Source: a virus. Taken from it: 64,000 nt of DNA. Below are positions 7,682 to 39,932 of this stretch, in pieces. Position 1 is the first letter of the stretch, and the number at the start of each line of letters is the position of its first letter. The notes under the pieces were generated by a model. The model saw nothing but the letters and a program-made list of their open reading frames with translations. It was not told the DNA's origin and did no database searches. The stretch lies in the IMG/VR virus record IMGVR_UViG_3300032236_000765, positions 1 through 64,000 of that record; one strand, written 5' to 3'. Both the position numbers and the translations under genes were made by a program.

Positions 7682-7693
7682 AACGTATTTATC

Positions 7694-9625: not shown

Positions 9626-10027
9626 TTATCCGGCATATGGATCAGTTTGTTCAGGTCTTAGATTCTCATAATAGTCATATACTAAATCGAAAAGACTGTT
9701 TATCTCTGCTGAAGTTAGTCCGCTAACTGCGGCCTCTCCTTCGACAGCATCAACAATAGCTGAGTCGCTAGGATTATCCCCTAGAAAGCTGACAATATCC
9801 CGTGCAATACGGGCTAGTGTTCTACCACTATGCCAATCACTTTCTTTAATAGTTTTTACCTTCTCAGCCCGTCGAACACTTTCTGATGCACCTACAAGAT
9901 CACCAACCCTTGCCGGGCGTTTCATGTTACCTTTTAGTTGTCCTGCTGGTCCTAGCTTGTTCTTTTTTGAACCCGCAAACGCACTCTTGGGAAGCATTGA
10001 TTCTGAGATTATTTCATTTATTCGCAT
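9626..10027 (-). CDS. Putative internal head protein
   Basis: MRINEIISE leader; TATAAATA late promoter at ~10061-10068. Confidence 0.65.
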   Translation of the reverse strand: MRINEIISESMLPKSAFAGSKKNKLGPAGQLKGNMKRPARVGDLVGASESVRRAEKVKTIKESDWHSGRTLARIARDIVSFLGDNPSDSAIVDAVEGEAAVSGLTSAEINSLFDLVYDYYENLRPEQTDPYAG

Positions 10028-22551: not shown

Positions 22552-22580
22552 AATATAGCGGAATGGGTAACTCATGTCAA
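22552..22580 (-). promoter_or_regulatory. Early promoter (conserved-spacer class)
   Basis: TTGACA-tgagttacccattccgc-TATATT. Confidence 0.88.
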
Positions 22581-23593
22581 CCTTTTTGTACCAAAAAAAG
22601 CGGTCCGTCGATAAATTTATTTCTATCCTGATTCATCATTCCAGCTTGCATTTCTTTGATCATCTCAGGAGTCAGATGTCTAGCTCTCATCTGTGAATCA
22701 TGAAAGAATATATGAACTTCTACAAAAGCATCACCCTCTAACCGTTGGATAGCTATCATACGATGACGCCCTTCATGTCCTGTGACCCTAGCAGGTTGGA
22801 TGAAGTCTCCGTCTTCCCACTGAGCAGGAATCTTAACAATCAAGAAAGGGGCGCCCAGCCCGCCACCATTTTGTAGATGGTCGATGATATCATTTATCGT
22901 TTTTTGATTAGGATGTTTAATTGGTGCAGCTAATTGGAAGAATGTCGAAGGACGCATCAGCACACGCAATCCTAGGTAGTCTACGTTTTCATTGTTTGGA
23001 GTCTGTCCCCATCCATTCGCGTTGTCTACCTTGTATTCATCTAGCTCATTTTCTCTAGATGTAACAGCGAGTTTGTTCTTTATTCCTTCATCAACTGGAC
23101 TCTTGCTGATAGGAACTTTCTTACGATTGGTGAGAAAATAGGTATTGAACCAAGCTGTGCTTTCAACATCCCATTTACTCATAAACGTATTATTCCGGCG
23201 TTCCATGCCCTCTGGATTATGATGTATAGCATCATAATCTTTCTCTAACAATTGCCAGGGCATCTTAGTGAATAATTCTGCAGGATCTTTGATTTGGACA
23301 CCATATTTTCTAGCAATCATCATGGCATCACTGTCTGTGTTAATGACTAGTATTCGTGCACCTGGTCTGACATCCATCAATGTGCCTTCATCACTTACCC
23401 ATTCAGGCATCTCACCATAACACCAGTCTACCCAATCACTCGTATAACCATTCTTGACTTTTATAGCAGTGCTAGTCCATAACGCAGCATCAGGCTTCAG
23501 TGATGCTTCATTAGTCTTTACAGGACGTGGAACATATAACTGCGGACCTAAACTCACATTTTTGTCCTCAGCTACTAAATCAGATGCTCTCAT
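22577..23593 (-). CDS. Putative head-packaged two-domain protein (ART-like plus ParB/Srx-like)
   Basis: MRASDLVAE leader; LWTS...WDVES; GHEGRHRM. Confidence 0.55.
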   Translation of the reverse strand: MRASDLVAEDKNVSLGPQLYVPRPVKTNEASLKPDAALWTSTAIKVKNGYTSDWVDWCYGEMPEWVSDEGTLMDVRPGARILVINTDSDAMMIARKYGVQIKDPAELFTKMPWQLLEKDYDAIHHNPEGMERRNNTFMSKWDVESTAWFNTYFLTNRKKVPISKSPVDEGIKNKLAVTSRENELDEYKVDNANGWGQTPNNENVDYLGLRVLMRPSTFFQLAAPIKHPNQKTINDIIDHLQNGGGLGAPFLIVKIPAQWEDGDFIQPARVTGHEGRHRMIAIQRLEGDAFVEVHIFFHDSQMRARHLTPEMIKEMQAGMMNQDRNKFIDGPLFLVQKG

Positions 23594-24879
23594 TTTGTCA
23601 CCCTATATGCAGCCCACTTGTCACGACCTTTCCTCATGCCGATATGTCTATCTATATAAAAAGACATACCGTGGTCACTTTCTCGTTTTGACGGGAATTC
23701 ATTCCCTACATTTATAGAAATAGCTTTTGGCAGATAGCTCAAATCATCACCGGAATCCATACCAAATTCCGGGGATAGCAATCCTTTTATAGTTTTAACA
23801 GTTGGACGGATAGCTTCATTCATATCAATCCTAAATCTGCGAGCTTCATCATTCCAGTTTAAATAATCATCCTTATTTTCGACTGCTTTATCCCAATCAA
23901 TATCACCATGTTCATCGGTGTATTTCTCTTGCATCTGTTGATAGTAGTACTCATCATTTATTTCCCATTCGGATAATACTTCCCAAAGATATTCTTCAGC
24001 AAGGTCTGCGATCTGGTTAATATAATTTTGCAATTCTTCATCAGGACACATGATAATCATGTCTTTAGTTTCAGGTTCATTTTGCAAAAAGAATTCATAT
24101 AGTTCTGGAAATCTCTTAGTGAGCAGGACATATAGATTTATCTCTTCATCCTCTTCATTCATGAATTGTCCCGAAGGGAAATGTAATTGATACTTCTCAC
24201 CTTCATGCCGTGGCTTCTTGGGAATGAGAATATACATCTTACCCTGATTGTTGTAGTAGTCGAAATAGTTTTTTCCTTGAGTAGCAGCAGTACACCAACG
24301 AGTACCCCTACCGTATCGACAAGCAGCAGCCTCATCTTCTGGTACGACAACTAATACGTTGCCATCTTCATAGACTTTTGAGGCTTTGCCTTTTTCTTCT
24401 TCTTTTTTCTTATCCCCACCTTCGATCTTATCTAGATCATATTGGTTGATCATAGTGTCTTCAAAGTCTTTATAAGTCTTGAATCGATTAATATCATTAT
24501 GCTCAGACTTGATCATTCTGCGTCTTTTACCGATATCATATATTCCGAGAAGATTTCTACGATTCATATCTTCCATCTTAAGGCCGCCCTTGGCATATAC
24601 TTTTGCTAACCAAGGAGTGTACGCTTTGTTTGGAGTAGGGTCCTTTTCTTCAATTGCACTTAATATCTTATCAATCATCTCTGCTCGTTGTGCAGGTGTG
24701 ATCACTGCATTTATCTGTTCAGGTGTTGCATTTGCTAGCAGTCGGAGCCTTGTCCAGATATTTGCCAATCCATATGCAGTGGCCCCTCTATCTTGAGCAA
24801 AAGCCGTTAATAAACGATTACCAACTTGATTGGCTGTGATCTGTCTATTATACTCAAGGAGAAATTCTCTGGCTCGCAT
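23590..24879 (-). CDS. Putative head-packaged protein
   Basis: MRAREFLLE leader; YG.GTRWCT, KYQLHF.SGQFM motifs. Confidence 0.65.
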   Translation of the reverse strand: MRAREFLLEYNRQITANQVGNRLLTAFAQDRGATAYGLANIWTRLRLLANATPEQINAVITPAQRAEMIDKILSAIEEKDPTPNKAYTPWLAKVYAKGGLKMEDMNRRNLLGIYDIGKRRRMIKSEHNDINRFKTYKDFEDTMINQYDLDKIEGGDKKKEEEKGKASKVYEDGNVLVVVPEDEAAACRYGRGTRWCTAATQGKNYFDYYNNQGKMYILIPKKPRHEGEKYQLHFPSGQFMNEEDEEINLYVLLTKRFPELYEFFLQNEPETKDMIIMCPDEELQNYINQIADLAEEYLWEVLSEWEINDEYYYQQMQEKYTDEHGDIDWDKAVENKDDYLNWNDEARRFRIDMNEAIRPTVKTIKGLLSPEFGMDSGDDLSYLPKAISINVGNEFPSKRESDHGMSFYIDRHIGMRKGRDKWAAYRVTK

Positions 24880-24888
24880 GGCTAATAA

Positions 24889-25884
24889 TTAGCCTCTATC
24901 ACGACCGAAAAGATGATTCATTTCTTCATCACTAGCAACATCTTCACTATGATATGCAGTAGGATAAAGTCTCTTGATTCGTGCTACTTCTTCTGGAATG
25001 TTCCAGCCGCCGCGGGAAATTCCCATATCAATAGAAGCATTTTTTAATTCTTCAGAACGGCTTTCAAGTTCAGATACAATATGTTTCATCAGTCCAGGAA
25101 ATAACTTAGTGAATTGTTCTTCACCTACGTTATAGTCCTGTGTTGCATTCTTTAACTGGCGGGTAGCTGAGTGCATCTGCCACTTGCCGTTTTTATTATT
25201 CATATTTTGTTTATCGATAATGCTAACGATAGGACCGTCTGATGAATAACGGTTGAACCAGTTCAACCCGCTACTACTTCCAGTACAGAATTGACCTTGA
25301 TGTCCTTCTGCGTTATTGAATGTATAGCAAGAGCCATAGTTTAATGGAACAATGACATAATATCTATCATTGTCAATAAGCACGATCTGTTTTGCATTCT
25401 TCTTCATTGCTGCTAGTTTTTCAGCATCAGCAATCTTTCTCAATGCATCACGATATTTGTCTTTGCGTATAACTTTTTGTAATTTTTCGATTGAAGAAAA
25501 TTTATTAAAGTCCTGATCATTAGGATCTAACAAACCACGAACACTAAGTGCTTTCCAAGAACCTAATGCATCTCCCCCTTCACCGTTGATTTCTTCATAA
25601 TTATTGATATGATTGACATACAGTTTTGTTAACCAAGCATCAAACTTGCCGTCTCTTGATAAGTCACCGTAGTTAGTAAGAGCCAGTGTACGGTCGATCA
25701 ATTTACTCCATAGCTTAACCACATCTTCATCACTTGGCTTAGGGCCTAGACTTGCTAGTGCTGGTGCCGGAAAGGTTGAATCATGTTTTACAGCCAAAGC
25801 CAGCATTTTAGTCATTCTTGGATCTTTAAGAATCTTTTCTGCATGGTTTGCTTCTGTTAATCTAGTTTTTATTAAGCGTCTCAT
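24889..25884 (-). CDS. Putative head-packaged protein, distant paralog of 23590..24879
   Basis: RLTEA leader; DFNKF, FCTG, KWQMH..T.Q motifs. Confidence 0.65.
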   Translation of the reverse strand: MRRLIKTRLTEANHAEKILKDPRMTKMLALAVKHDSTFPAPALASLGPKPSDEDVVKLWSKLIDRTLALTNYGDLSRDGKFDAWLTKLYVNHINNYEEINGEGGDALGSWKALSVRGLLDPNDQDFNKFSSIEKLQKVIRKDKYRDALRKIADAEKLAAMKKNAKQIVLIDNDRYYVIVPLNYGSCYTFNNAEGHQGQFCTGSSSGLNWFNRYSSDGPIVSIIDKQNMNNKNGKWQMHSATRQLKNATQDYNVGEEQFTKLFPGLMKHIVSELESRSEELKNASIDMGISRGGWNIPEEVARIKRLYPTAYHSEDVASDEEMNHLFGRDRG

Positions 25885-25895
25885 GATTGTCCTTC

Positions 25896-26888
25896 TTATA
25901 GGTGTAATAGTACGTGTTTTAAATAGTTCATCAGTGTGACTAATTTATTTTGGTCACCGTTTGCAATATCAGCGACGACTTTTTTCATGCCCTCACTTCT
26001 ATCAGGTGAGTTAGAACGATAGCCACTACCTAAAGTGAAATTGCCGGTATCATCTGGGTAGTAATGACTTGCGGTCATATATAGCGCAGGTCTTAATCTT
26101 GACTTTAACTCAGCAGGCACTGATGCAGGATCATCGATGAGTCTTTCTCTGATATCACTCAATTTTTTTAATATCTGTAGCTTAATTTCTACTTTATTGT
26201 AAGCATCATTCTTTAGGGCTATACCACTAACACCTTTAACATCAGCGATTGCTTGATCGACGTATTTTAAAAATAATGGACGTAATTTATTATATATTGC
26301 TTCTAGATTCGTACTCATACTAGCAGTTGGGTCTAGCATAGTAGGATTATCAATCCTTCTAGCGCGTTCACGTTCATCACGCTTTTTCTCGACTTCACCT
26401 CTTGAACTTCTGCCATAGCCACCGGTACCTACAGAAGACCAATACCCCATGACTTTTCCTAAGTCTTCTTTCATATCACCTACTAGTGCGTTGATACTAC
26501 TTGAACGGAGTTTGCGAATTCCGTTACCGGTCGCAACCATTGCACGCCATTCAGAACCATCCCATTTTATTGCAGCGGTTCCTCTACTACCAGCAATCAA
26601 CACATAGTTAGGAGAACGCTCTTTAATATCCTTCCATGTTATTTTAGTTTCAGGCTTCCATTGTACATTATCCGGAATAGAAAGTTCACTATGGACATGT
26701 TGAATGAGCAAATCTGCATATGGGCTATTACGAACAGTCGAACTGATTGATGAGTCCTCATCTAGAATCTCATGCAAAACGTGGGATATAGCCTTATGAA
26801 ACATCTTACGTGCCGGATCATTGTTAGAACGTCTTGACGGTTGTAATGGTATGAATCTATTTTCTTTAAGTAGGTCTGATCTTCTCAT
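25896..26888 (-). CDS. Putative head-packaged protein
   Basis: Start revised to MRRSDLLKE; internal ILDED. Confidence 0.65.
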   Translation of the reverse strand: MRRSDLLKENRFIPLQPSRRSNNDPARKMFHKAISHVLHEILDEDSSISSTVRNSPYADLLIQHVHSELSIPDNVQWKPETKITWKDIKERSPNYVLIAGSRGTAAIKWDGSEWRAMVATGNGIRKLRSSSINALVGDMKEDLGKVMGYWSSVGTGGYGRSSRGEVEKKRDERERARRIDNPTMLDPTASMSTNLEAIYNKLRPLFLKYVDQAIADVKGVSGIALKNDAYNKVEIKLQILKKLSDIRERLIDDPASVPAELKSRLRPALYMTASHYYPDDTGNFTLGSGYRSNSPDRSEGMKKVVADIANGDQNKLVTLMNYLKHVLLHL

Positions 26889-26890
26889 TA

Positions 26891-27334
26891 TTATGCTCTT
26901 GTTGTCTTTAGAATGCTTCTGAGCATCCAATTGTGTTTGCCGTGAGCATCAATACGCTCTGCAATAAAGTTAGCGATTCCCTGTTCATCTGCTTCTTCTG
27001 CGACATGAAAAGCCTGTTTCCACATATGCAAAATCTTTAGATTATCATCGTATAGTTCTTGCATCATGAGTTCAGCACGAGGAACTTTAAGTTGATCTTC
27101 AACATGACTTAGTTCTGAGAGACGGGCGAGACTGCCTGGAGTATATACATCAAGTTGACGAATTATCTCAGCAGTACGATCAATTGTATTTCCGTAAACT
27201 TCTTCATAAAGATTACCTAAAAATTCATGGTATTGAGGGAAATCCGGGCCTTCGACATTCCAATGGAAATATTGCGTCTTAATTGAAAACGCATATACGG
27301 TGGCCAACATTGTCTTAAGAGTATCTGCTAACAT
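26891..27334 (-). CDS. dps: Dps/ferritin-like DNA-protecting protein
   Basis: FHWNVEGPDF..YHEF...LYEE, D..AE.IR.L, H.KH.WML. Confidence 0.92.
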   Translation of the reverse strand: MLADTLKTMLATVYAFSIKTQYFHWNVEGPDFPQYHEFLGNLYEEVYGNTIDRTAEIIRQLDVYTPGSLARLSELSHVEDQLKVPRAELMMQELYDDNLKILHMWKQAFHVAEEADEQGIANFIAERIDAHGKHNWMLRSILKTTRA

Positions 27335-27351
27335 TTAAAATATCCTATGAA

Positions 27352-27720
27352 CTATTTATCGTTTTTACTATTATTTGGTTTCTTATTTTTATACAGATGT
27401 CTTAATATAACCGAATCAGTATCTTCGTAAGTCATTGCAGTTATTCTACGAGGACCCTTGCGTTTGAACATACCGTACTCTTGTTCATAAGTAGTTGGTC
27501 CGCCGACCATAGAACCACCGCTATTACCAGCAGAGCCACCTCCCTGGCCAGTACTAGCGGTTTCTACGATACCTTCTGCTTGCAACTCACGCATAGCTTG
27601 CACTAACGGATGCACAAAAGGTTCGGGTTCAGTGATTTCTTCCGCAATGGAGTCTGATGCTTCTAGCATCCTCATTTTCTCTATGAGTGTGCTAATTTCA
27701 TCCACATACATTTTTGCCAC
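27352..27720 (-). CDS. Putative internal head protein
   Basis: Multiple hydrophobic-x-E sites; Gly-rich segment. Confidence 0.55.
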   Translation of the reverse strand: MAKMYVDEISTLIEKMRMLEASDSIAEEITEPEPFVHPLVQAMRELQAEGIVETASTGQGGGSAGNSGGSMVGGPTTYEQEYGMFKRKGPRRITAMTYEDTDSVILRHLYKNKKPNNSKNDK

Positions 27721-27751
27721 TTTTCCCTAATAAACCTTACTATCTCAAAAA

Positions 27752-30208
27752 TTATTTTTTCTTTTTGGTTACAAAGTCAGCAAGAGCCTTTGTGAATGTT
27801 GCGAGTGTCATACCGCCGGCGCCAACAAATGCACCTGCTGCTACCAACCCTTGAAAAAATTGAAACCATTCGTCAGGTCTCATATAAGGTATAAGCTGGG
27901 TCCAAGGAATTGATTCATCTAACATTTCTTCATTAGTTGTACCAGCCATCTTTGGCTTGAACTTGCGATATGATTGACCTGCATTTCCACCTTGACCCAT
28001 ACCGCTTGCATAAGCAGTGTCTTCAAATGTTCTGCGATCTCTCCAACCACCTGGTTGAGTTCCTACCGGTCCTGAAGTGTCTGGCATCTCTCGCATGACA
28101 CCTCTATTTGTGCGTGACATTGAACTGTTGTATGAACCTTTTGTGGGAATGCGTGAAGGTTTATAATTCATATTTTCAGCGACTTTTTTCGTTTTTAAAC
28201 TATTTGCATACTTTAGTATTTCATCTATTACACCGACTACTTTTTTTAATGGTACCTTTGACGCAAAAACTGTCTGTATGAATTTCATTACATTAGGATT
28301 TTTGCTTTTAACGGCTGCTTCCATCACATACTGCTTCATTGAACTTCTAGATATAGAATATTCTTCATTCAAGCCTATTGCATTGCCTAATGTATTCTTT
28401 ATAAATTTCAATAAGTTTATGAAGTTGTCTCCTTGACCCAAGGCTATGATTGCTGAAGCTGCAACAGCTCCCAATACTGGAGTTACTTTTTCTTTTATAA
28501 AGTTTTTAAGTTTTTCCCCTGTGCTAAAATCTGTCTTATCAGGATGAAACTCTCCGTATTCTCTCAATCTAGCTTCTTTCACTTTATTCTTTATTTGTCC
28601 ACGACGCTGGACCCCTGAATTCATAGTAGACTTCGTGGATTTGGGATTCTTACTTTCTCTATACATTGTGTTAGTCTCTTTCCTTCTAATTGTTTTTCTA
28701 CTGTCAGATCGGGATTCAAACTGATCAGTTCCTGGTATAGGGTGAACGATTGGATGGCATCCCTGCCAATACTCATGATCAAGTGCAGGTGTCCATGCCA
28801 TGAATTGAGCAGTGTCACCCTCTGTGCATTGCCTGCTTCTCCAGCCCATTTGACTTGATACTCTTTTGACTAATAATTGATAAAGTTTTCGTCTGCTTTC
28901 ACCGCTACCTGTAAATGTAACCCAGGTAGTATTAGAATTTTTAACAAAGTTAACAACATGGTGCATCACTGTGGCCAATACTTGAGCAGCCGCAGGCCCT
29001 AGATCACCTGTTAGATCATATTCACTCTCATTATCATTTACCCAGCGACTAAAACTTATTATTAGACCATGATTTTTATGTTGTTTAATAAAGCTAGCCA
29101 TACGTGTTGGAGAAATTATTTCGTCATAATAATATATGTTACGGTTATTACTATATAGAATTGCTAGTTCATAATCATGAACTACTTCTTTACCGGTGTT
29201 AGGATCAGTTACAGTTATTGCAAAATCTCCTTGTTGACCGTCTCTGAAACGGGTCCATTTGATCGGCAAAGGTTTGTCAAACAATTCGTTCAGTTGGTTT
29301 TCTTTTACATGCTTAGGCTTTTGGTGATGTTTTTTCATATTGATAGCGATTGCAGCTTGTTGTGCTGCATTTGCTGCTTCTTTTACACTCTCACTCTTAG
29401 TGCCCCAGTTCTTTGCACCCTTCTTACGGCATTGAACTAACGCACCACTAGCATATGCGCTTGGCCATACCTTGTAGCGACTTTTGACTTTGTAGTAGCA
29501 GGCATCTTGCTTCTCATTGATCATCGATTCAGGATACATACTGCCACCACATTCTGGACATTTCTGTCTATCTTCATTTTTCTTTCGGCCAGCACAATGT
29601 GCTTTCTGACTGAAGCCTTTTGGGTGTGAGCAATCAATACTACGCTTGTATTTTTCACTCCATTTTTCTTCTAACTCTTGTCCTTCATTTTTTACACAGT
29701 TAGGAACAGTCTTGCCGAACATCTTCTTGTTACCCTCTTTGTGATAACCCTTCCAGCAATTCTCATCCATCTGTTCTTCATTAGTCTTTTTCTTGGTAGC
29801 AACATTCTTTGCTGCACCGCGACGATCAGGATTTGGGTCTTCTCTGCGCTTCTTACTAGCAGCATATTTGCGACCCTTCTTACCTAAGTTCTGTGCTTTC
29901 TTTTGCGGCAAGCATTTTGGTTTACCTTCACTGTCACTACCCCTTGCACAAGCACCACGAATCTTTCCGTCTGGGCCAAAACGAACCCACTTCTCTTTGA
30001 ACCACTTGTGAAGATTTTCGTCTAGTTCGACCTCTTCATGTGTTTCAGTTCTGAGTTCGATTTCTTTTCTTGGAAATTTTTTCTTCATCTGTCTAAGAGC
30101 ATCTTCTGCTTCTTTAGGATCGACATATTTTGTTGCAGCTACACCGTCGATATACAGAACAAGTACCTGCTCAGATTCGTCAACAATGCCTTTCATGATA
30201 CTTGACAT
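27752..30208 (-). CDS. Modular internal-head polyprotein
   Basis: Short basic Cys-containing modules separated by LDE/MDE/LEE/INE/VKE/LNE. Confidence 0.7.
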   Translation of the reverse strand: MSSIMKGIVDESEQVLVLYIDGVAATKYVDPKEAEDALRQMKKKFPRKEIELRTETHEEVELDENLHKWFKEKWVRFGPDGKIRGACARGSDSEGKPKCLPQKKAQNLGKKGRKYAASKKRREDPNPDRRGAAKNVATKKKTNEEQMDENCWKGYHKEGNKKMFGKTVPNCVKNEGQELEEKWSEKYKRSIDCSHPKGFSQKAHCAGRKKNEDRQKCPECGGSMYPESMINEKQDACYYKVKSRYKVWPSAYASGALVQCRKKGAKNWGTKSESVKEAANAAQQAAIAINMKKHHQKPKHVKENQLNELFDKPLPIKWTRFRDGQQGDFAITVTDPNTGKEVVHDYELAILYSNNRNIYYYDEIISPTRMASFIKQHKNHGLIISFSRWVNDNESEYDLTGDLGPAAAQVLATVMHHVVNFVKNSNTTWVTFTGSGESRRKLYQLLVKRVSSQMGWRSRQCTEGDTAQFMAWTPALDHEYWQGCHPIVHPIPGTDQFESRSDSRKTIRRKETNTMYRESKNPKSTKSTMNSGVQRRGQIKNKVKEARLREYGEFHPDKTDFSTGEKLKNFIKEKVTPVLGAVAASAIIALGQGDNFINLLKFIKNTLGNAIGLNEEYSISRSSMKQYVMEAAVKSKNPNVMKFIQTVFASKVPLKKVVGVIDEILKYANSLKTKKVAENMNYKPSRIPTKGSYNSSMSRTNRGVMREMPDTSGPVGTQPGGWRDRRTFEDTAYASGMGQGGNAGQSYRKFKPKMAGTTNEEMLDESIPWTQLIPYMRPDEWFQFFQGLVAAGAFVGAGGMTLATFTKALADFVTKKKK

Positions 30209-31369
30209 TTATCTGTTCCTTAATCTGCGGTAGTTCTTATTATATAATTGTGCTTCATTTAACATTTTATTCCAAAAACGTTTTAAGCTTTCAGCAGTGA
30301 ATGATGGATAATCATCACCGTACATTACTTTCGTGTCTCTAGCTATAAAAGTCTTTATTTGACGTAGAACCGCATCCTCATCACCGCGCATACGAATCAA
30401 AAGTTGTAGTGTTAAAATAGGATCAAGAGGAACTGGGGCTTCGTTACGAATATAATAGTAAAGATTTGGAGCAAATTCTTTTATTTGTTGATAAGCATCA
30501 TCATGCTCGGAAGTGATAAATCCACCGGTTTGGTTCACGTTTGTGTTAGTATCACTGATTCTATGAGAATGACTTTCACCTACACCGCCACCTGCGATTA
30601 CACCTTCATGTGCATTATTATTTTCTTGTGCACTGATGAGATATTCAGTGACTCCGGTCATCATACCCTTGATCTGCCCGATCTTTTCTGAGACCCATTC
30701 AGGAAAATGATCACTGTTCTCTAATCTATTATGTAGCTCTTTGGCATTGCGAGCGATAGTTCTTAGGCTATTCTTTAGAGTCTCACCCTCGCGGTCTGAT
30801 TTATCTGGGTCAAATGAATGGAAGCCAGTCTTTAATCTACGACCTTGTCCTGGTACAAGAATCAATTCGTCTTCTTCTAGACGAGCTTCATGTACTTCTT
30901 TTTTGATTTCACACTTACTATTAGGATGCTTATTCTGCATGATTGTTACTTGATCTTGTGCATCTTTTATATTCACGGACTTAGTTACTGGCTTACCATT
31001 AATATAGACAACATAAACTTGTTCGCTCTCTTTCAAGCGTTGAGCTTCATGTACTTCTTTTTTGATTTCATACTTACGGTCAGGATGCTCTTTCCTCATT
31101 ATAGAAATCTGTTCTTGTGCATCTTTTTCAGTCGTAGATTTAGTTGCTGGTTTACCATTAATATATATTACGTGAACCTCTTCGCTTTCTTTCAAGCTAT
31201 TAACAAACGGCTTACTTGTCTTCTTACCGGTAAATAGATTACCGACTTTCTTACCACTGTACACACCTTTACCCACAGCAGAACGCTTCATTGGTCCTCC
31301 GTTCATAGGAGCTGCTACAGTAGCGACACTACCGGATGTTGTTGACTCACAGATTTCAGTAATTCTCAT
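30209..31369 (-). CDS. Modular internal-head polyprotein
   Basis: MRITEICES leader; tandem ~50-aa repeat. Confidence 0.7.
   Translation of the reverse strand: MRITEICESTTSGSVATVAAPMNGGPMKRSAVGKGVYSGKKVGNLFTGKKTSKPFVNSLKESEEVHVIYINGKPATKSTTEKDAQEQISIMRKEHPDRKYEIKKEVHEAQRLKESEQVYVVYINGKPVTKSVNIKDAQDQVTIMQNKHPNSKCEIKKEVHEARLEEDELILVPGQGRRLKTGFHSFDPDKSDREGETLKNSLRTIARNAKELHNRLENSDHFPEWVSEKIGQIKGMMTGVTEYLISAQENNNAHEGVIAGGGVGESHSHRISDTNTNVNQTGGFITSEHDDAYQQIKEFAPNLYYYIRNEAPVPLDPILTLQLLIRMRGDEDAVLRQIKTFIARDTKVMYGDDYPSFTAESLKRFWNKMLNEAQLYNKNYRRLRNR
30885..31195 (-). repeat. Tandem duplication of a ~50-codon module (third copy at ~30030-30180)
   Basis: ESE.V.V.YI.G..ATK....K.A....M.K..P..K.EI..E.HE, three copies. 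Confidence 0.85.
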
Positions 31370-31415
31370 AAATAATCATCCATTTATTTTATATAGAGTA
31401 TTTATCTCAACAAAT

Positions 31416-31443
31416 AAAAAGAGGTCCCATTTCTGGGACCTCT
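31416..31443 (-). terminator. Intrinsic terminator
   Basis: AGAGGTCCCA-GAAA-TGGGACCTCT-TTTT. Confidence 0.85.
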
Positions 31444-31468
31444 GGATGTTTCAAAAAGAAACTTCCTT

Positions 31469-32374
31469 TTATTGAGCAGAACCTTCAGGTGGTTGATTTT
31501 CTGCTGCTGCCTTAGCTGCTTGAGCTTCAACATACATCGGACCAACAGTGCTGAGAAGATGCTCTTGATTCTCCATGCAGAACACATAAGAACCGGAGTG
31601 ACGTAGAAGAACACGCTTATCGATCCAAATCTTACCACCAAGGTCACGCCAGTTTTCACAGAACGTCCAGTCTTCTGAGTAATAACGATTCTGACGAACT
31701 GCTGTGTCGAAGTAAGTCTTCAAGTATTGATCGTACTTCGGATCAAGACCAATGTCGTTCTTGTACTGCTTGACTGCTGGATGAGCATTCATCTTTTCAA
31801 AGACATGCTTCTTCATGAGAAGGAAGCCGGTGCCTGCCTTCGAAACTTCTTGAAGACCGTCTGGACCTTCTTCAGCACCATCAAAGCCGTTGACAACCCA
31901 CTTGATCGGCATCGTCTTCATCGGATACAAACCACCGATAACATCAACGTCTCTATTCAAGAGAACTAGCAAGTGCCAGGGTTCCCAACCGATATCAGCG
32001 TCAACGAAGAACAAGTGTGTTGCTTCAGGCATGTCAAGGAACTTAGCGGTGAGCGTATTTCTAGCTCTGCTGATTAGTGATTCATTCACCATTGTTTCAA
32101 GAGTCCAATCAATGCCCAACTGACGAGCAGTGTTTGCCCACTTGATGAAACTCATAAATGTAGATTCAGTCAACATACCGCCGTAGCAAGGCATTGCGAT
32201 ATGAACCTTAGTAGTACGTAGATAGTCTACGTTAACTTGAACTTGGTTCTGCTGCGGTTGTTGTTCTTGTGCTTCCTGTTCATTGATTTCTTGAACAGCC
32301 TCTTGCACTGCTTCGACTGGGATAGTTGCTTCTTCAGTTGAAGCAGTAGTATTCTTTGATTTCTTAGTTGCCAT
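31469..32374 (-). CDS. GT-A fold glycosyltransferase-like protein
   Basis: IAMPCYGG, ESLISRARN, FVDADI, GTGFLL, SEDW.FC. Confidence 0.85.
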   Translation of the reverse strand: MATKKSKNTTASTEEATIPVEAVQEAVQEINEQEAQEQQPQQNQVQVNVDYLRTTKVHIAMPCYGGMLTESTFMSFIKWANTARQLGIDWTLETMVNESLISRARNTLTAKFLDMPEATHLFFVDADIGWEPWHLLVLLNRDVDVIGGLYPMKTMPIKWVVNGFDGAEEGPDGLQEVSKAGTGFLLMKKHVFEKMNAHPAVKQYKNDIGLDPKYDQYLKTYFDTAVRQNRYYSEDWTFCENWRDLGGKIWIDKRVLLRHSGSYVFCMENQEHLLSTVGPMYVEAQAAKAAAENQPPEGSAQ

Positions 32375-32436
32375 ACAGTCCTCTTTTTGTGTAAACTAAC
32401 TAGTAGTAATATTTACACGGAAGAAGGGTAGTGGAA

Positions 32437-35400
32437 TTATTTTTCTTCTAAGTAATCTGTATTTTCGGATAATTTTTTAGTTACTTGTTTCTTTATCCAT
32501 TTATCCGGAATCATATGATGCTTCTTAACAAAATCATCATGCAGTTTGTCACCAGTCAAGTGGTATTCTTTGCAGATCAATTGCATCATCTTATCGATCT
32601 TATCATAATTGAGCTTTATACCTCGATCTTTAGCTTTCAATAATGCTTTCTCTAGTTGTTCAACACTACCGGATTTTTCTTTACCAGTAACATGTGTTGG
32701 CTTCATCTTACCTTTTAGTTTAACTTTCGCTTCACTTAGTAATCTGACAAACTTAGCTTTTTGCCTTAGAGTAGCTTCTCCCAGCAGAGGTTTAATACGA
32801 TCAATGAACTCTTTGATTTCTTGTTGCTTCATACCTGCTGCGGCAGTATTCATCAATGTCTTGACCCAGTCGATACCTAATTTTTTAGTGTCAAATGCCT
32901 TTGACCATAGATTTAATTTATCATGTTCACTGGCATTTGGATCCTTCAGAATATCACGGAGCATAGTGAAACTAATACCAGTACCACCTTTGTCTGCTTC
33001 ACGTTCTGTTCTGACAGTCTCGAAGTCTACTTGATCTTGTGTACCGCCATACTTAGCAACAGCTTCCGGATCCTTCATTCTCTTTGAGAGAGAATCCATC
33101 CACTTCTTCATGCTTTCGTAGCGATCACTTCCTACAAGAAGAATGATCTTATTGTAAGGACTGTTTTCTGGAATAACAAGTTCCTTTTCGATCTTCTTCA
33201 TTGGAGTTCCACCTGGATTCCATATCTGTATATTATTGCTATAGTCAGGATATAGCTTACGAAGTGTCTTTAACTTCATATCAGGTGGAATAGGATCGTC
33301 TGGTCCAACTACAGGGCTAACAAAAATATAAGGGTCACCCTTTACACTATTTGCAAGAGCAATAGTTTGATTGATTAATTGTTGATGTCCTCTGTGACCA
33401 ACAAAGCTACCGATAGTCACAACAGCAGGTTTGGTACGATTGCTTGCTACTGTGCTGCTGGCTGTTTTCTTTGCAGCCATTTTATCTTTCATATCGCTGC
33501 TTGTTACTTTAACAAGCATACCGTTGGGTAGATTAATCACGAGACCTTCGATTATCTTACCTAACTGATCCTTGCCTTCTAGCCTTGGGCTATTGATAAT
33601 AGCATCACTTAATTCTTTACGAGCGTGGGTTAAAATCTCTTTTGCTTTAGCCTTTTGTGCAGACTCACCGCGTGACTTCACAGCAGCTAGTAATGCATCA
33701 GCATTATTAACGATAGGATCTACAATAGAACTCACATCTAGATCACGTTGCTTCAATTGATTATTAACAATCTTGATTTCTTTGGTGCTATCTCTTAACA
33801 ATTCATATTTGATCTTAGCTGCGTCGGGTCTTGGTTCACCAGTGCTATAAGTTTTCACACTGAATGGAACCAAAGTCATGATCGTACCTAGCTTCTTTTG
33901 ATCATATGGAATATTAACAAATACGATACCGTTATCAGATCGTTTACCCATAGGCATGAATAACATTTCTGCTTGTACGATAGTATCATTCGGTAATCGC
34001 TTGATGAAGTCAGAAGTCACGATAGTCTTCAAGGCTTCGTCATATAATTTTGTGAAAGAAAGGCGCTCGGGGTCTTGCCCCATGCTACGGCCATATTTTT
34101 CAAAGTCGCCGTAATTCTCAGCATACTTAGGATCAGTTACCTTTGAAGTCATGAAGAATGGCTTGCCTTGTTCATCCTTACCGAAACGAACGCCTGCACC
34201 GTCTACCTTGAGATTGATAGGAGCACCATCAAGTTTACCGCCCATACCTGCAATCTCTTGGCACATACGAATGAAGTCAGCATCCTTCATCTCAACACTG
34301 CTGCCTGGACTATAGATATGCGGAATTCCCTTGCGTTTATAATCAGGTGCAGCTTCGTCAAGTGCTCTCTTTGCCATATTCTTGACGATCTCATTAGTGT
34401 TTTCACTATCATCTGTCGATGTCATCTTGTATCCAGCATAATAATCCTTCATCATCTGATCAAGATTACTAGGCTTAGGCATCTTTAGCATATTAAACAT
34501 ATGATTGATAGCTGTAGTTTTTTCTGCTCGGTCTTTACCGGGGTTATTCTTATACATTCCCTGAGCACCTGGACCAACTACTTTCAACAAGAATGCATGT
34601 ACAACGTGCTGTTTTTCTTCAGGTGAAAGTAGATGGTTCATTACATCAAGCAAGCCGGAGAATGACCAGAATTTATTTGATATCTCTCGTGCTTGCTTTG
34701 GGTCTAATCTCTTACCGAGAATAGTTTGAAAAATCTTACCGATATCTTGAATATAACCCGAGGTCGGTGCTGCTCGCATGACTGGTTTACCATCTTTATA
34801 TTCTGGTTTTCCAGTCATTCCATCCATAACAGGTTCATACTTTGCTCTTAATCCACCGCCTTCTTTAGACGATACTGCAAAGCTATACATATTGTCTACT
34901 GTGAGTACATCTTCTTCTTTTCGTGCTTTACCACGACCGACCAACTTACGCAAGTAAAATTCTTGACGAGTCAAAGAGGTAAATGCTTGAATCAATAGTT
35001 TATGGAATACACCTTTGACTCCTGATTGCAAATCATCCCAAGATGAGCTATGGCTGAATCTTGCCCAATCAGTTGGTTTATTATTTACGAATTCTACAAA
35101 CTCAAAGTCAATCTGAACTTTTATAGGAGGATCCTGTAGTTCCCACAAAGAACTGAACTGTTCATTGCCGCGTTGAAATCCGCGAAGAATTGAAGGGCCG
35201 ATCTGCTTATCTTCATTCTCGGTTAGGAATTCTCTTAATTCTAATTCTAATTCTTTGTCTACCATCGTATCCATATCGCCGACGGTTGGCTTCTTGGCTA
35301 CGAATGTTTCGTCAGGAATACCCTTGACATTGAAGAAGTGCAAACTAGAACCACTCAGGAATTCTCCGCTACTTAATAATTCAGGACTCCATAATGGTTT

Positions 35401-35583
35401 TCTAAATTTTCTAGCAAATGCAGCATCAATGGACATGAGCAGGTTATTGAGAATAGGTACGATATATTTTCTATTCGTTACCTTAAGATCGAGGTGTTGC
35501 GCCTCATGGCCGCGAATAGCGAGATTGCCACCTTCTAGCAAACGACGTTTACGATTTTCTGCAATACCCCTTGAAGTCTTCAT
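32437..35583 (-). CDS. Three-domain protein: Pol-beta-type nucleotidyltransferase, RNA-ligase-like and HIGH cytidylyl/adenylyltransferase
   Basis: SGSS..GDMD..QID; KVDG..QAEML..EGLV..VK; GHRGH..VGSDR..GIS.T.LR. Confidence 0.7.
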   Translation of the reverse strand: MKTSRGIAENRKRRLLEGGNLAIRGHEAQHLDLKVTNRKYIVPILNNLLMSIDAAFARKFRKPLWSPELLSSGEFLSGSSLHFFNVKGIPDETFVAKKPTVGDMDTMVDKELELELREFLTENEDKQIGPSILRGFQRGNEQFSSLWELQDPPIKVQIDFEFVEFVNNKPTDWARFSHSSSWDDLQSGVKGVFHKLLIQAFTSLTRQEFYLRKLVGRGKARKEEDVLTVDNMYSFAVSSKEGGGLRAKYEPVMDGMTGKPEYKDGKPVMRAAPTSGYIQDIGKIFQTILGKRLDPKQAREISNKFWSFSGLLDVMNHLLSPEEKQHVVHAFLLKVVGPGAQGMYKNNPGKDRAEKTTAINHMFNMLKMPKPSNLDQMMKDYYAGYKMTSTDDSENTNEIVKNMAKRALDEAAPDYKRKGIPHIYSPGSSVEMKDADFIRMCQEIAGMGGKLDGAPINLKVDGAGVRFGKDEQGKPFFMTSKVTDPKYAENYGDFEKYGRSMGQDPERLSFTKLYDEALKTIVTSDFIKRLPNDTIVQAEMLFMPMGKRSDNGIVFVNIPYDQKKLGTIMTLVPFSVKTYSTGEPRPDAAKIKYELLRDSTKEIKIVNNQLKQRDLDVSSIVDPIVNNADALLAAVKSRGESAQKAKAKEILTHARKELSDAIINSPRLEGKDQLGKIIEGLVINLPNGMLVKVTSSDMKDKMAAKKTASSTVASNRTKPAVVTIGSFVGHRGHQQLINQTIALANSVKGDPYIFVSPVVGPDDPIPPDMKLKTLRKLYPDYSNNIQIWNPGGTPMKKIEKELVIPENSPYNKIILLVGSDRYESMKKWMDSLSKRMKDPEAVAKYGGTQDQVDFETVRTEREADKGGTGISFTMLRDILKDPNASEHDKLNLWSKAFDTKKLGIDWVKTLMNTAAAGMKQQEIKEFIDRIKPLLGEATLRQKAKFVRLLSEAKVKLKGKMKPTHVTGKEKSGSVEQLEKALLKAKDRGIKLNYDKIDKMMQLICKEYHLTGDKLHDDFVKKHHMIPDKWIKKQVTKKLSENTDYLEEK

Positions 35584-36172: not shown

Positions 36173-36856
36173 CTATTTCTTTTCTAATTTGTAGGATTTG
36201 CCAAGTATCCCCGGAAACATCAGATGCATCATAGTCAAGTTCTTCTCATCATTGTAGTTGAAATACTGACCAGTATGAAACCATGCCTTCTTGAATTCTC
36301 TACGCAGCGCCATTTTAAGTGCATCGCTAGGAGAAACATCAGGAGTACGGTTTAGATAATCAAGAATATCTTTTCTGATTGATCCTTCTCTATTTACATT
36401 CCTACAATAAACCCTATATACGGCAGGAGGATCCTTTTTAAAATAGATCACTCCTGCCGGCATGGGTGTTACATGGGTAATCGTAGCAGCAGGATAAAAG
36501 GATAGCAGTTCGTTTATAATACTGATATCATTCGTGAATACACCAGCACTGTCTCGTTCATGCCGCAGACAAACCCTACTATCATTCTTATACTTGTTTC
36601 GGAAATTAATATATTTCTCAATCAGATCATAATTTATTTTAGCTACGTTTATTTTTCTACCTTCATACCATCTAGGATTCTCAGCTTCTTCCTCAATACG
36701 AGCCTTGATACGTTCATTGTATCCTTGAAAATCACTCACATAAGAAGCCCAGTACAACTCTGGAATTTCCAGAGTTGCTCTATAAGCGAACTTCTTATAG
36801 AAGAGTGTTAATCTGTCTTTGCTCTTAATTTTCGAGTTGGATAATGCCGTCATCAC
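36173..36856 (-). CDS. Hypothetical protein
   Basis: 227-aa ORF downstream of clpA; start uncertain. Confidence 0.65.
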   Translation of the reverse strand: MMTALSNSKIKSKDRLTLFYKKFAYRATLEIPELYWASYVSDFQGYNERIKARIEEEAENPRWYEGRKINVAKINYDLIEKYINFRNKYKNDSRVCLRHERDSAGVFTNDISIINELLSFYPAATITHVTPMPAGVIYFKKDPPAVYRVYCRNVNREGSIRKDILDYLNRTPDVSPSDALKMALRREFKKAWFHTGQYFNYNDEKNLTMMHLMFPGILGKSYKLEKK

Positions 36857-39095
36857 CGATCCTTGCAGCCTGTTTTTGAGTCACATTAAATACAATCTCA
36901 CCGTTTTCCATAACTGCCATGATATTTGCGTTATTGATACGTTCAAACAAAATCTTCTTAGAGAGCGGCACACGAACAACCTCATCGATCTTTCGTGCTA
37001 GAGGACGTGCACCCATCTTGCTATCATATCCAATTTCTGCAAGGTGATCAACCACTGACTCAGCTAGATTGAGAGTGATATTATGCTTGTCTAGTAGCGG
37101 CTTCTTGAGTTCTTCCACAAACTTGATAACAATCTTCTTGATAGAAAGATGATCCAGCTTGTTGAACTTGCAGACCATATCAAGGCGATTTCGGAACTCA
37201 GGCTTGAAGAACTGCTTGAGAGCCTTATCATCTTCACCTGTTCGTTCAAGGCTACCGAATCCGATATTGTTTCGTTCGTTGTCAGCCGAACCTAGATTTG
37301 AAGTCAGGATGATGAGGGTATTCTTCATCGAAACCTGCTTACCATTCGATCCAGTGATGACACCTTCATCCAACATCTGCAAGAAGATGTTAAAGATATC
37401 TGGGTGAGCCTTTTCAACTTCATCGAACAGCAGGATTGAGTGCGGGTTCTTGCTCAGGTCTGAAATTAGGCGTCCACCTTGTACTTGTGAATCACCAAAG
37501 CCCACATAACCCGGGGGAGGACCAATCAAGCTGCTTACGCTATGCTTCTCACTGTACTCAGACATATCGTACTTGAGAAGCGGCATATCCAAATTCTTAG
37601 ACAGCAGCTTGGCCAATTCTGTTTTACCCGTGCCCGTCGGGCCCAAGAACAAGAAGCTCGCAATCGGTTTCTTATCGTTACCGATTCCCGCAAACGAGAC
37701 ATACACACGTTCAAGAACCTTATCCACAGTCTCATCCTGACCGTAGAGCTTGTTCTTGACATTCATTTCAAGGTGATTGATGCGATCATAATTATCACCG
37801 CTCAACTTGTCAGCAGGAACACCAGTGAACTTCTCCACCTGTTCATGAATGAGTTCTTTGGTGATCATCGCATCCTTGTTTTCGAGCACCCGCTGCTTTG
37901 CACATGCAGCATCGATCAGGTCAATAGACTTGTCAGGATTCTTACGATCATGAATATAACGATCTGCATTGTCAACCGCAGCTTCGATTGCTTCCTCAGT
38001 GATGTTCACTTCATGGAATTCGCTCAGACGAGCTGCGAGACCATTGAGAATGCGAATCGTAGAATCACGAGAAGGTTCATCAATCGTTACCTTGTAGAAT
38101 CGACGCATCAATGCACGATCCTTCTCAAACGATTCATAGAACTCTTCCCAAGTTGTAGAAGCAATCACCTTGAGATTACCCTTAGTAATAGCAGGCTTCA
38201 ACATGTTTGCGAAGTCTGTTCCACCGCCGTTACCTGTATTGCCTGCACCCTGCATTGTATGTGCTTCGTCGATGAACAGAATCGCTTTCTTCTTTACAGA
38301 AAGTGCTTCAAGGACATTCTTGACCTTTTCTTCAAAGTCACCGCGATAGCGAGACCCTGCTAGCAGCGAACCAATCTCAAGTGAATAGAGTTCGTAGCCT
38401 GATAAGAATTCAGGAACTTCATCATCCACGATTGCATTAGCGATTCCTTCTGCGATTGCAGTCTTACCGACACCCGGGTCACCGACCATCAATACGTTGG
38501 ACTTGAAACGCTTTGCGAGAACATTAATGATATCATTGATCTCTGACGCACGACCAATGACCGGCTCAAGCTTGCCCTTACGAGCAAGGTCGGTGAGATT
38601 GATCGTGTATTCTTCGAGGATCTCGTCAGCTTGATTATCAGAAATATTACCAACAAAGTCACCGCCCTTGTAATGGCGCTGCCAGTGAACGAGGAACTCA
38701 CTTTTGGTGACACCATACTTCAGAAGGAAGTAATGACCGTGGCTGTTATTCTCATGGATGATGCTCATATACAAGTCAATCGTTGTGACTTGTCGGCGAC
38801 CGCTGAACAGAACCTGCGTGACACTGCGATTCATCACACGTTCAAGCGTGTTGGTTCGCTTAGGAAGGATATTAGGATCCTTGCTTTCGATAGCATGGAG
38901 ACCATTCAAGTATGCTTCTACTTCTTGAATCATTAGTTCGATTTCAACACCGAAACTATTCAGGCATTTCTTGAACGGTGGGTGAGAGATGAGTGACCAT
39001 AGTAGATGTTCTACTGTGCAATATTCATGCTGGCGTTCCTTTGCAGAACCTATTGCACGTTCAATGATATTTTCAATCTCAGGGGAAGGTTGCAA
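36825..39095 (-). CDS. clpA: ClpA-like AAA+ unfoldase
   Basis: Clp-N domain, two Walker A motifs (GDPGVGKT, GPTGTGKT), GYVG pore loop, IGF loop, no M-domain. Confidence 0.93.
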   Translation of the reverse strand: MQPSPEIENIIERAIGSAKERQHEYCTVEHLLWSLISHPPFKKCLNSFGVEIELMIQEVEAYLNGLHAIESKDPNILPKRTNTLERVMNRSVTQVLFSGRRQVTTIDLYMSIIHENNSHGHYFLLKYGVTKSEFLVHWQRHYKGGDFVGNISDNQADEILEEYTINLTDLARKGKLEPVIGRASEINDIINVLAKRFKSNVLMVGDPGVGKTAIAEGIANAIVDDEVPEFLSGYELYSLEIGSLLAGSRYRGDFEEKVKNVLEALSVKKKAILFIDEAHTMQGAGNTGNGGGTDFANMLKPAITKGNLKVIASTTWEEFYESFEKDRALMRRFYKVTIDEPSRDSTIRILNGLAARLSEFHEVNITEEAIEAAVDNADRYIHDRKNPDKSIDLIDAACAKQRVLENKDAMITKELIHEQVEKFTGVPADKLSGDNYDRINHLEMNVKNKLYGQDETVDKVLERVYVSFAGIGNDKKPIASFLFLGPTGTGKTELAKLLSKNLDMPLLKYDMSEYSEKHSVSSLIGPPPGYVGFGDSQVQGGRLISDLSKNPHSILLFDEVEKAHPDIFNIFLQMLDEGVITGSNGKQVSMKNTLIILTSNLGSADNERNNIGFGSLERTGEDDKALKQFFKPEFRNRLDMVCKFNKLDHLSIKKIVIKFVEELKKPLLDKHNITLNLAESVVDHLAEIGYDSKMGARPLARKIDEVVRVPLSKKILFERINNANIMAVMENGEIVFNVTQKQAARIGDDGIIQLEN

Positions 39096-39119
39096 TCTTT
39101 AAATCCTTTTCAATTTTAT

Positions 39120-39926
39120 TTAGTTTGAGGTATTCTGATGTTGCTTGATAGTATCTATGATGTCAGAGTTTATATTAGCAGGGATGAATGGCTTAAGCAA
39201 GAGTATTTGGTCTCCTCGCATACCATTTCCTGCAGGCATACCATATCCACCTAATCTAATCTGTTGATATGGTTGCGTTCCTGCAGGTATGTTGACTTCT
39301 AAGGTACTTCCACTTAATGTCGTAAATTCTACCTTAGTACCTACAATCAAATCAAGCACCGATATAGAGACATTTGAATATAGATTATCGCCTTCACGGT
39401 TAAACTTGAGATCAGGCTGGATAACAAATTCGATTATGAGTGAAGCTTCATCCAATACATTATCATAACGCACGTTTTGACCTGATTGAATTCCTTCAGG
39501 TATCTTTATGGTAATCGCTTTCATACCCATAGGGGTACCTAGCTGTAGTATCTGTTCTGCCCCATTATAAACATCAAGCAATGATATGGATACGCGGGTG
39601 CGATAAACCTGTCGCTGTGAGGTTTGAGATTGGTGAAATGGATTGTTTTGTCCAAATGCTTGAGAGAACAATCCATTTAAATCAAATCCATTAATATTAA
39701 ATGAAAAACCTCCCGGATGATTCATAAATTGTTGTGGAGCAGGATTATCATACGCAGCACGTTTCTGAGGATCGCTCAGTGTATCATATGCTGTTTGGAT
39801 TTCTTGGAATTTGTTTTGATCGCCGCCCCTATCAGGATGGTGCTGCATCGCAAGTTTGCGATATGCTTTTTTGATTTCTTCTGCTGAGGCGGTACGCTGT
39901 ATGCCTAGAGTATTATAATGATCCAT
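39120..39926 (-). CDS. dnaJ: DnaJ/CbpA-type co-chaperone
   Basis: J-domain HPD, G/F region, C-terminal domain, no Zn finger. Confidence 0.92.
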
Positions 39927-39932
39927 TGTCAT

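Follow-up and report, generated by a model that had tools for sequence, protein, structure and literature searches.

What kind of protein is built from many small modules, each preceded by a tripeptide ending in Glu, and what becomes of such a chain in a phage infection? The question is raised by an uncultured, T4-related phage represented by IMG/VR record IMGVR_UViG_3300032236_000765, a 75-kb contig of which 64 kb (positions 1–64,000, hereafter the window) were analyzed; its completeness of 22% (CheckV) implies a whole genome of ∼340 kb. Two open reading frames (ORFs) of 818 and 386 amino acids (aa) abut here with zero gap on the minus strand, and an initial annotation made from the sequence read the 818-aa product as beads on a string, separated by protease-type sites and matured into a library of small basic, Cys-bearing peptides. 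Here we propose that the 818-aa protein is probably a late head cargo, docked through its leader and cut at its junctions into basic two-Cys peptides of 3–10 kDa, a GNAT-like domain and a hydrophobic tail. The packaging of the protein, each cut, and the fate and function of the fragments we infer. The T4-style head-cargo principle is known, and its extension to polyproteins, on an unusually modular scale, is the most economical account of the locus.

The strongest evidence lies in the junctions. Modules A–G, K1 and K2 are defined by residue of the 818-aa protein (Table 1), and the six junctions named in the initial annotation (LDE/NLHKWF, MDE/NCWKGY, LEE/KWSEKYK, INE/KQDACYY, VKE/AANAAQ and LNE/LFDKP, the slash following the Glu) are all present in its translation. 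Among homologs, Glu stands immediately before modules B (345/345 instances), C (350/351), D (220/220), F (341/343), G (67/67), K1 (37/37) and K2 (77/77), giving ∼1,437 of 1,440 instances with Glu at P1, usually in the form [L/V/I/M]-x-E ([LVIM]-x-E before C, [MIL]-x-E before F). P3 is L/V/I/M/F in 84–100% of instances (92% for B and 99% for D), except in G, where it is so in only 66% and Thr is also frequent. Residues at positions −4 to −8 change with the context while the Glu at P1 stays, and the motif is independent of the module upstream. In homologs of 30% identity, VNE, LNE, MAE or IDE stands before the DUF6934 domain, which here follows LNE. In the AlphaFold model of residues 1–310, the junction motifs fall mostly in linkers of low confidence (predicted local distance difference test, pLDDT).

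The motif is also enriched over chance. The 818-aa protein contains 9 copies of [LIVM][DNE]E against 1.8 expected (z 5.6; 0 of 1000 shuffles as high) and 17 of [LIVM]xE against 10.3 (z 2.4; 1000 shuffles). T4 served as a positive control. In that phage the core proteins gp22, gp67 and gp68 are cut at many L/I-x-E sites to yield small internal peptides, and [LIVM]xE exceeded shuffles in gp22 (z 3.8), gp21 (z 3.8) and inh (z 3.3), followed by gp68 (z 2.3), with all other tested proteins at or below z 2. Among 218 ORFs of a related 333-kb contig (G001), gp22 ranked first (z 4.5) and gp21 fourth, with bead-string proteins third and fifth. Enrichment of [LIVM]xE thus marks multiply cut head-core proteins.

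The modules behave as exchangeable units. A HMMER search of the whole library gave 5,503 clusters at 50% identity (E ≤ 0.001), and word-index searches (8,000 candidates scored in each) yielded >2,700 proteins comparable in length to the query and 7,975 shorter proteins; each library match covers merely 10–37% of the query. Mapping thirteen modules on 344 retrieved homologs gave 187 distinct architectures, which bears out the earlier suggestion of module exchange and order-independent reuse; x-x-E stands at the module boundaries across hundreds of homologs, the opposite of colinear homologs with unrelated boundaries. Modules B, C, D and F occur in all pairwise orders (B before F 82 times, F before B 80; C before D 33, D before C 57), and E alone is fixed in order, directly before F in 188/188 cases. 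Module A, reported initially as present once in the 818-aa ORF and twice in tandem in its neighbor, is indeed so distributed: residues 12–58 of the former are 40–45% identical to residues 61–115 and 114–168 of the latter. Fusion partners of the modules elsewhere are GNAT, ParB, cytidylyltransferase, pterin dehydratase, DUF5872 and DUF6321 domains.

A single instance of a module outside any chain is provided by gp70 of Roseobacter phage CRP-902 (L117:2980-3150), in which module F is a free basic protein of 56 aa with neither leader nor hydrophobic-x-E (Phi-x-E) motif. Judged from this one example, the module can stand alone, and the motif is a property of the junction rather than of the fold. 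No Peptidase_S77 match was found in the 52-kb CRP-902 genome.

Both proteins begin as T4 internal proteins do. The capsid-targeting sequences of these internal proteins are propeptides of 10–19 residues (PMC9026906), and leaders of T4 propeptide type (∼7–19 residues ending in L/I(/V)-x-E) open both the 818-aa (MSSIMKGIVDE/S) and the 386-aa protein (MRITEICE/S). The T4 record itself has MKTYQEFIAE/A (ipII, ipIII), MAKINELLRE/S (gp24) and MLKEQLIAE/A (gp22). Eight of the ten consecutive genes at 22577–35583 begin M..Phi-x-E, with the motif at residues 5–11; one of the leaders is MYVDE, and the others are given in Table 1. In G001 the pattern M-x(2-4)-[DEN]-Phi-Phi-x-E opens 12 ORFs against 1.14 expected (p 3e-9), three of them adjoining gp23, gp22 and gp21. 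These three are tandem paralogs of ∼190 aa directly beside the head genes (G001 174187–175903, minus strand; also L088:19-594), with the leaders MRINELLNE, MRITEIITE and MRINEIINE. A 133-aa ORF of the window (9626–10027) has the similar leader MRINEIISE, with an exact TATAAATA 34 nucleotides upstream.

The protease that such sites call for is encoded in the lineage. T4 gp21 cuts after L/I-x-E, and Asp in place of the P1 Glu prevents processing (PMC9026906). Pfam identifies both Peptidase_S77 (gp21) and Gp23 in each of five contigs of 250–352 kb that hold a module-gene homolog. G001 has gp23, gp22 and a gp21 homolog (179119–179757) clustered and an island of genes in the same order as in the window, with a 128-aa ORF 82% identical and genes of 429, 331 and 330 aa 40–59% identical to their counterparts. 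Protein identity to the window is 47% over modules A–G for G001 and 55–81% over the best-matching module segments for G002–G005. The G001 major capsid protein contains ...QLLAE/SSAG (L-A-E/S), which aligns with the cut region of T4 gp23 (after FLTE65). The protease-type sites of the initial proposal match the specificity of gp21, which relatives encode; cutting itself we infer.

Homologs of the modules are recorded in virions. T4-like cyanophages also carry the modules, in 366 records (gene cluster T4-GC119). Over modules B to F, S-CREM2 gp160 has 42% identity (E 5e-37), with LEE/KKNCWPGY as one of its junctions, and it is listed with 7 peptides in a published virion proteome (PMC10665884). 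S-SCSM1 ORF29 is 32% identical over 86% of residues 60–300 and is a 'virion protein' by GenBank annotation, the paper of that record reporting a virion proteome of 45 proteins by mass spectrometry. ORF92 of the same phage, considered as a homolog, gave no BLAST match and was rejected. Both cyanophages encode gp21. The 1048-aa gene upstream of the two ORFs is weakly homologous to the virion proteins S-CREM2 gp154 (E 8e-6) and S-SCSM1 ORF91 (E 3e-8), and the virion-packaged cytidylyltransferase/NMNAT proteins of these phages begin MKNFSSFLTE/ and MKSFLQFLKE/.

Late expression is suggested by GATAAATAC, which holds the T4 late-promoter core. Six copies are found in the window against 0.74 expected, at 7685, 31398, 36158, 41682, 41742 and 58471, all on the minus (gene) strand and each just upstream of a gene start; one precedes a 2434-aa ORF of probable structural function. 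The exact T4 late promoter TATAAATA, with 9 occurrences in the window against 5.7 expected, shows no significant enrichment.

Leaders, promoter and virion records bear on whether the protein is a virion component at all. It might instead be an ordinary multidomain protein of the infected cell, or be cut by another protease, such as a host enzyme or the phage peptidase encoded in the window (733–1569, phrog_16701). The presence of that gene, the leaderless genes within the island (a Dps-like gene at 26891–27334 and a 301-aa ORF), and virion records that come from homologs, none of them direct for this phage, are consistent with such an origin. We nevertheless regard it as very improbable: homologs are recorded as virion proteins in two cyanophages, leaders resembling capsid-targeting sequences are far above chance, a late-promoter-like motif stands at the operon, and the site motif is that of gp21.

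Several observations weigh against cutting at the junctions. In T4, only accessible L/I-x-E sites are cut. Neither gp21 nor gp23 was found on the 75-kb contig or on its five closest fragments, and the link to the protease therefore runs via more distant carriers of the module gene. Motif enrichment in the 386-aa ORF alone is not significant (z 1.8), and breakpoints of high-scoring segment pairs lie just upstream of the sites only modestly more often than at random (23% against 16%). Further, Phi-x-E is inherited with each module, so that a structural cap is conceivable; one site (LEE, residues 179–181) is placed in a helix by the model; E is never apart from F despite the INE site between them; and the cyanophage records attest presence only, no cleavage product having been seen for this protein or any homolog.

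These last four points are what one would expect if the chain persisted intact in the virion, losing at most its leader, as a multivalent basic bead string coating the DNA, with the acidic ...E-x-L-D-E stretch serving as a flexible linker and recombination joint rather than a cleavage site. An intact chain seems to us unlikely, since P1 is practically always Glu against a variable background at positions −4 to −8, equal motif enrichment is seen in T4 core proteins known to be cut many times, module F exists as a free protein devoid of the motif in a phage with no gp21 match found, and the irrelevance of module order fits independent pieces.

If cutting does occur, the predicted products are small. 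Pieces B to G are basic (pI 8–10.2) with two Cys each, in agreement with the small basic Cys peptides proposed initially; the proposed library has to be read differently. Near-complete genomes carry essentially one such locus apiece, and the diversity is therefore between phages rather than within one virion. The model of residues 1–310 is confident for module A, with a hairpin for C and two helices for F. A fold search with it gave no convincing fold (best Z 5.1, module A giving generic matches), and a search of BFVD returned sequence relatives only. Scans of both ORFs against Pfam gave only DUF6934 and a sub-threshold AntA match, and the PHROGs matches were all to families of unknown function; neither scan detected a peptidase domain. 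The two hydrophobic segments described initially were recovered as moderately hydrophobic, Gly/Ala-rich stretches at residues ∼574–595 and ∼784–806.

The globular domain predicted after LNE corresponds to DUF6934, matched above the gathering threshold (34.7 bits against a cut-off of 27, residues 407–453), and residues 300–505 have a confident predicted fold (AlphaFold2, pLDDT 77; predicted template modelling score, pTM, 0.76). Its best PDB matches are nearly all GNAT acyltransferases, at weak E-values (2e-3 to 6e-2). Among the matching viral predicted structures (E 1e-7 to 4e-3) are Alt-family ADP-ribosyltransferases and, from the T4-like jumbo phage Atu_ph07, multidomain proteins. Alignment of the region with T4 Alt by hhalign was negative (probability 0.1), and the link to Alt is therefore one of predicted-structure similarity only; possible kinship of the two is a lead. 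A search for short homologs of residues 304–500 found none. In a metagenomic protein of 696 aa (P0061), four DUF6934/GNAT-like domains stand in tandem in one chain.

Fragments of this kind could also be packaged and cut as disposable core or scaffold filler, like T4 gp22, gp67 and gp68, to be expelled or merely to neutralize DNA charge, with no effector role and with diversity reflecting neutral drift. The motif-enrichment profile is that of gp22, gp21 and inh, the fragments are basic, and lysines of T4 internal proteins contact DNA phosphates (PMC3012670). Mere filler is, in our judgment, rather improbable: module sequences are strongly conserved (60–90% identity, with invariant Cys pairs) across thousands of variants, enzymes (GNAT, ParB, cytidylyltransferase, pterin dehydratase) occur as their fusion partners, and hypervariable content at a single locus is typical of conflict genes such as the T4 internal protein loci (PMC3012670).

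The cargo reading that we favor would involve the following steps. The operon would be transcribed late from a T4-late-like promoter. The short leader ending in Phi-x-E would, like the T4 capsid-targeting sequences, dock the precursor in the prohead scaffolding core. A serine protease of gp21 type would then cut behind the Glu of the leader and of the [L/V/I/M]-x-E before each module, yielding the small basic two-Cys peptides, module A, the GNAT-like domain and a hydrophobic C-terminal piece. These products would remain beside the DNA inside the capsid, and some of them at least may enter the host along with it.

Table 1. Positions in the window of the predicted polyprotein, its modules and the associated genes and signals (residues, where given, are those of the protein named)
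Feature	Position	Strand	Remarks
Putative 818-aa mosaic polyprotein: leader, modules A–G, GNAT-like DUF6934 domain, hydrophobic segments, K1/K2	27752..30208	−	ORF; homologs partial, shuffled
386-aa ORF: leader MRITEICE, basic segment, two A modules, C-terminal domain X (residues 266–372)	30209..31369	−	
122-aa ORF, module Z (GQGGGSAG..GPTTYEQEYGMFKRKGPRRITAMT)	27352..27720	−	Z is the polyprotein C-terminal end in other phages
Four downstream genes with T4 capsid-targeting-like leaders MRASDLVAE, MRAREFLLE, MRRLIKTRLTE, MRRSDLLKE	22577..26930	−	Orthologs in same order in G001
1048-aa gene, leader MKTSRGIAE, cytidylyltransferase/NMNAT-like domain	32437..35583	−	
N-terminal leader MSSIMKGIVDE of 818-aa protein, residues 1–11, ends V-D-E	30176..30208	−	
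Module A, residues 12–64, beta-beta-alpha-beta mini-domain, ends ELDE	30017..30175	−	AlphaFold2 pLDDT 86–97
Module A copy 1 of 386-aa ORF, residues 62–108, after LKE	31046..31186	−	
Module A copy 2 of 386-aa ORF, residues 115–161, after LKE	30887..31027	−	
Module B, residues 65–149, NLHKWFKEKWV...C...KPKC and basic tail	29762..30016	−	Net charge +14, two Cys
Module C, residues 150–181, NCWKGY...VPNCVK, beta-hairpin, two Cys	29666..29761	−	AlphaFold2 pLDDT ∼81
Modules D and E, residues 182–232, KWSEKYKRSIDC...AHC, then CPECGG	29513..29665	−	
Module F, residues 233–277, KQDACYYKVKSRYKVWPSAYASGALVQCRKKG, two helices, two Cys	29378..29512	−	
Module G, residues 278–308, AANAAQQAAIAINMKKHH..., then VKE and LNE sites	29285..29377	−	
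DUF6934/GNAT-like globular domain, residues 309–495	28724..29284	−	Pfam PF22028
Hydrophobic Gly/Ala-rich segment 1, residues 574–595	28424..28489	−	Kyte-Doolittle mean up to 1.6 over 19 residues
Modules K1 and K2, residues 708–765, MPDTSGPVG..GGWR.. and DTAYASGMGQGGNAGQSYRKFKPK	27914..28087	−	
C-terminal segment after LDE, residues 766–818, with hydrophobic stretch 2	27755..27913	−	
T4-late-promoter-like GATAAATAC, ∼30 nucleotides before 386-aa ORF	31398..31406	−	Six copies against 0.74 expected
Terminator-like hairpin and T run, parting the upstream unit from the 386/818 unit	31416..31444	−	Read from sequence

The boundaries of the locus can be drawn from its relatives. Module Z, a separate 122-aa ORF here, closes the polyprotein at its C-terminus in other phages (P0003, P0004, P0015 and P0017), and domain X of the 386-aa ORF is fused into polyproteins elsewhere (P0005, P0013 and P0053); the 386-, 818- and 122-aa ORFs are therefore taken as one locus. 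On balance, the three appear to form a single hypervariable cargo locus within an island of head-targeted genes. The C-terminal module of the 1048-aa gene (∼70 aa, ...LNYDKIDKMMQLICKEYHLTGDKLHDDFVKKHHMIPDKW...) recurs within the polyprotein homologs P0012 and P0042.

The peptide that opens the 818-aa protein recurs at other positions in homologs. Among 246 of these its SSIMKG motif is N-terminal 38 times, internal 90 times (...NESSIMKGIVDE/...) and C-terminal 93 times, the C-terminal copies lying within six residues of the end (...ESAIMKGLKR, followed by the stop). Its synonymous positions vary freely, and selection therefore acts on the peptide; retention of the leader only as a DNA recombination site was rejected on this ground. 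SSIMKG is thus, speculatively, a candidate position-independent docking tag. By analogy with the cargo-loading peptides of encapsulins, S-S-I-M-K-G-(I/L) may mark proteins for the prohead interior from an N-terminal, internal or C-terminal position, with a cassette locus dealing strain-specific two-Cys effector peptides that the head protease may free and that may be injected as anti-defence or takeover effectors; this wider proposal is tentative and, as a whole, doubtful.

How do these proteins compare with known head-internal systems? With the T4 internal proteins and Alt they share the short N-terminal leader ending in Phi-x-E, a lineage with T4-type protease, scaffold and capsid protein, basic lysine-rich products, a hypervariable non-core locus and, in the case of Alt, a DUF6934-like domain with predicted-structure relatives in Alt-family proteins. 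The T4 internal proteins are single proteins with one cut, whereas here 8–15 modules are chained with a site before each, and the SSIMKG-type leader is also internal and C-terminal. Beyond the leader, no homology to IPI, IPII, IPIII or Alt was found (tblastn; hhalign against Alt). The T4 core proteins gp22, gp67 and gp68 resemble the chains in having multiple Phi-x-E sites, a like enrichment and small peptide products, but they are conserved acidic coiled-coil scaffolds, whereas the chains are basic, mosaic and enzyme-fused, with Cys pairs.

The inner-body and ejection proteins of phiKZ, 201phi2-1 and SPN3US are likewise numerous, head-internal and associated with a gp21-related protease. The cleavage motif of giant phages of phiKZ/SPN3US type is S/A/G-x-E; this is another motif, in another lineage, and the proteins form paralog families of separate genes rather than shuffled chains. 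Processing in such phages takes place after Glu, with redundant sites in the propeptides, and phiKZ and SPN3US have a separate cleavage logo (PMC9026906). Polyvalent proteins combine many unrelated domains in one polypeptide, are predicted to be packaged, injected and freed by proteolysis, and commonly, though not universally, carry their own peptidase domains (zincin-like MPTase, assemblin-like) (Iyer et al. 2017, PMC5512222). The disparate domains of the present chain (at least 10 modules plus the GNAT-like domain) recall them, but polyvalent proteins have mostly large enzymatic domains; here mostly peptides of 25–85 aa are found, no peptidase domain was detected, and cutting would fall to the head protease, in trans.

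The T4-GC119 proteins of cyanophages (P-SSM2 PSSM2_123, Syn19_101, S-CREM2 gp160 and S-SCSM1 ORF29) contain true homologs of B, C and F (32–42% identity), each preceded by x-x-E. They differ in being shorter (270–520 aa), with fewer modules and a less regular P3, and their annotations read only hypothetical or virion protein. In the literature, no account of these modules as polyproteins was found.

If the cuts are real, T4-like phages use their head protease as a trans-acting polyprotein processor, beyond the trimming of internal proteins made singly; a complete string of cargo could be loaded through one leader, and its composition could be changed by recombination at the junctions. The locus is present in thousands of environmental variants and in hundreds of records of cultured T4-like cyanophages, and the module family takes in two Pfam families of unknown function, DUF5872 and DUF6321. 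Such chains are possible natural multi-cargo designs for the engineering of T4 capsid delivery.

A second bead-string protein is encoded in the window, by a 982-aa ORF (58551–61499, minus strand) that adjoins the 2434-aa ORF and contains [LIVM][DNE]E 14 times against 2.6 expected (z 7.1). Its beads are basic and helical, with a Cys-rich C-terminal part (CEECGH.., CDECG.., KCNKCHSYKCKC). The protein ranking third for motif enrichment in G001 (329380–331683) is its likely counterpart, by similar leader and position only.

Other genes near the island include the leaderless Dps/ferritin-like gene mentioned above (minus strand; Pfam Ferritin, E 1.6e-19), kept at ∼80% identity in many related loci. 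On the other side of the two ORFs lies a ClpB/ClpA-like double AAA+ ATPase (36825–39932, minus strand; phrog_4871, E 4.5e-232), adjoined by a 270-aa ORF whose N-terminus reads as DnaJ J-domain-like, which suggests a phage-encoded chaperone pair beside the cargo island.

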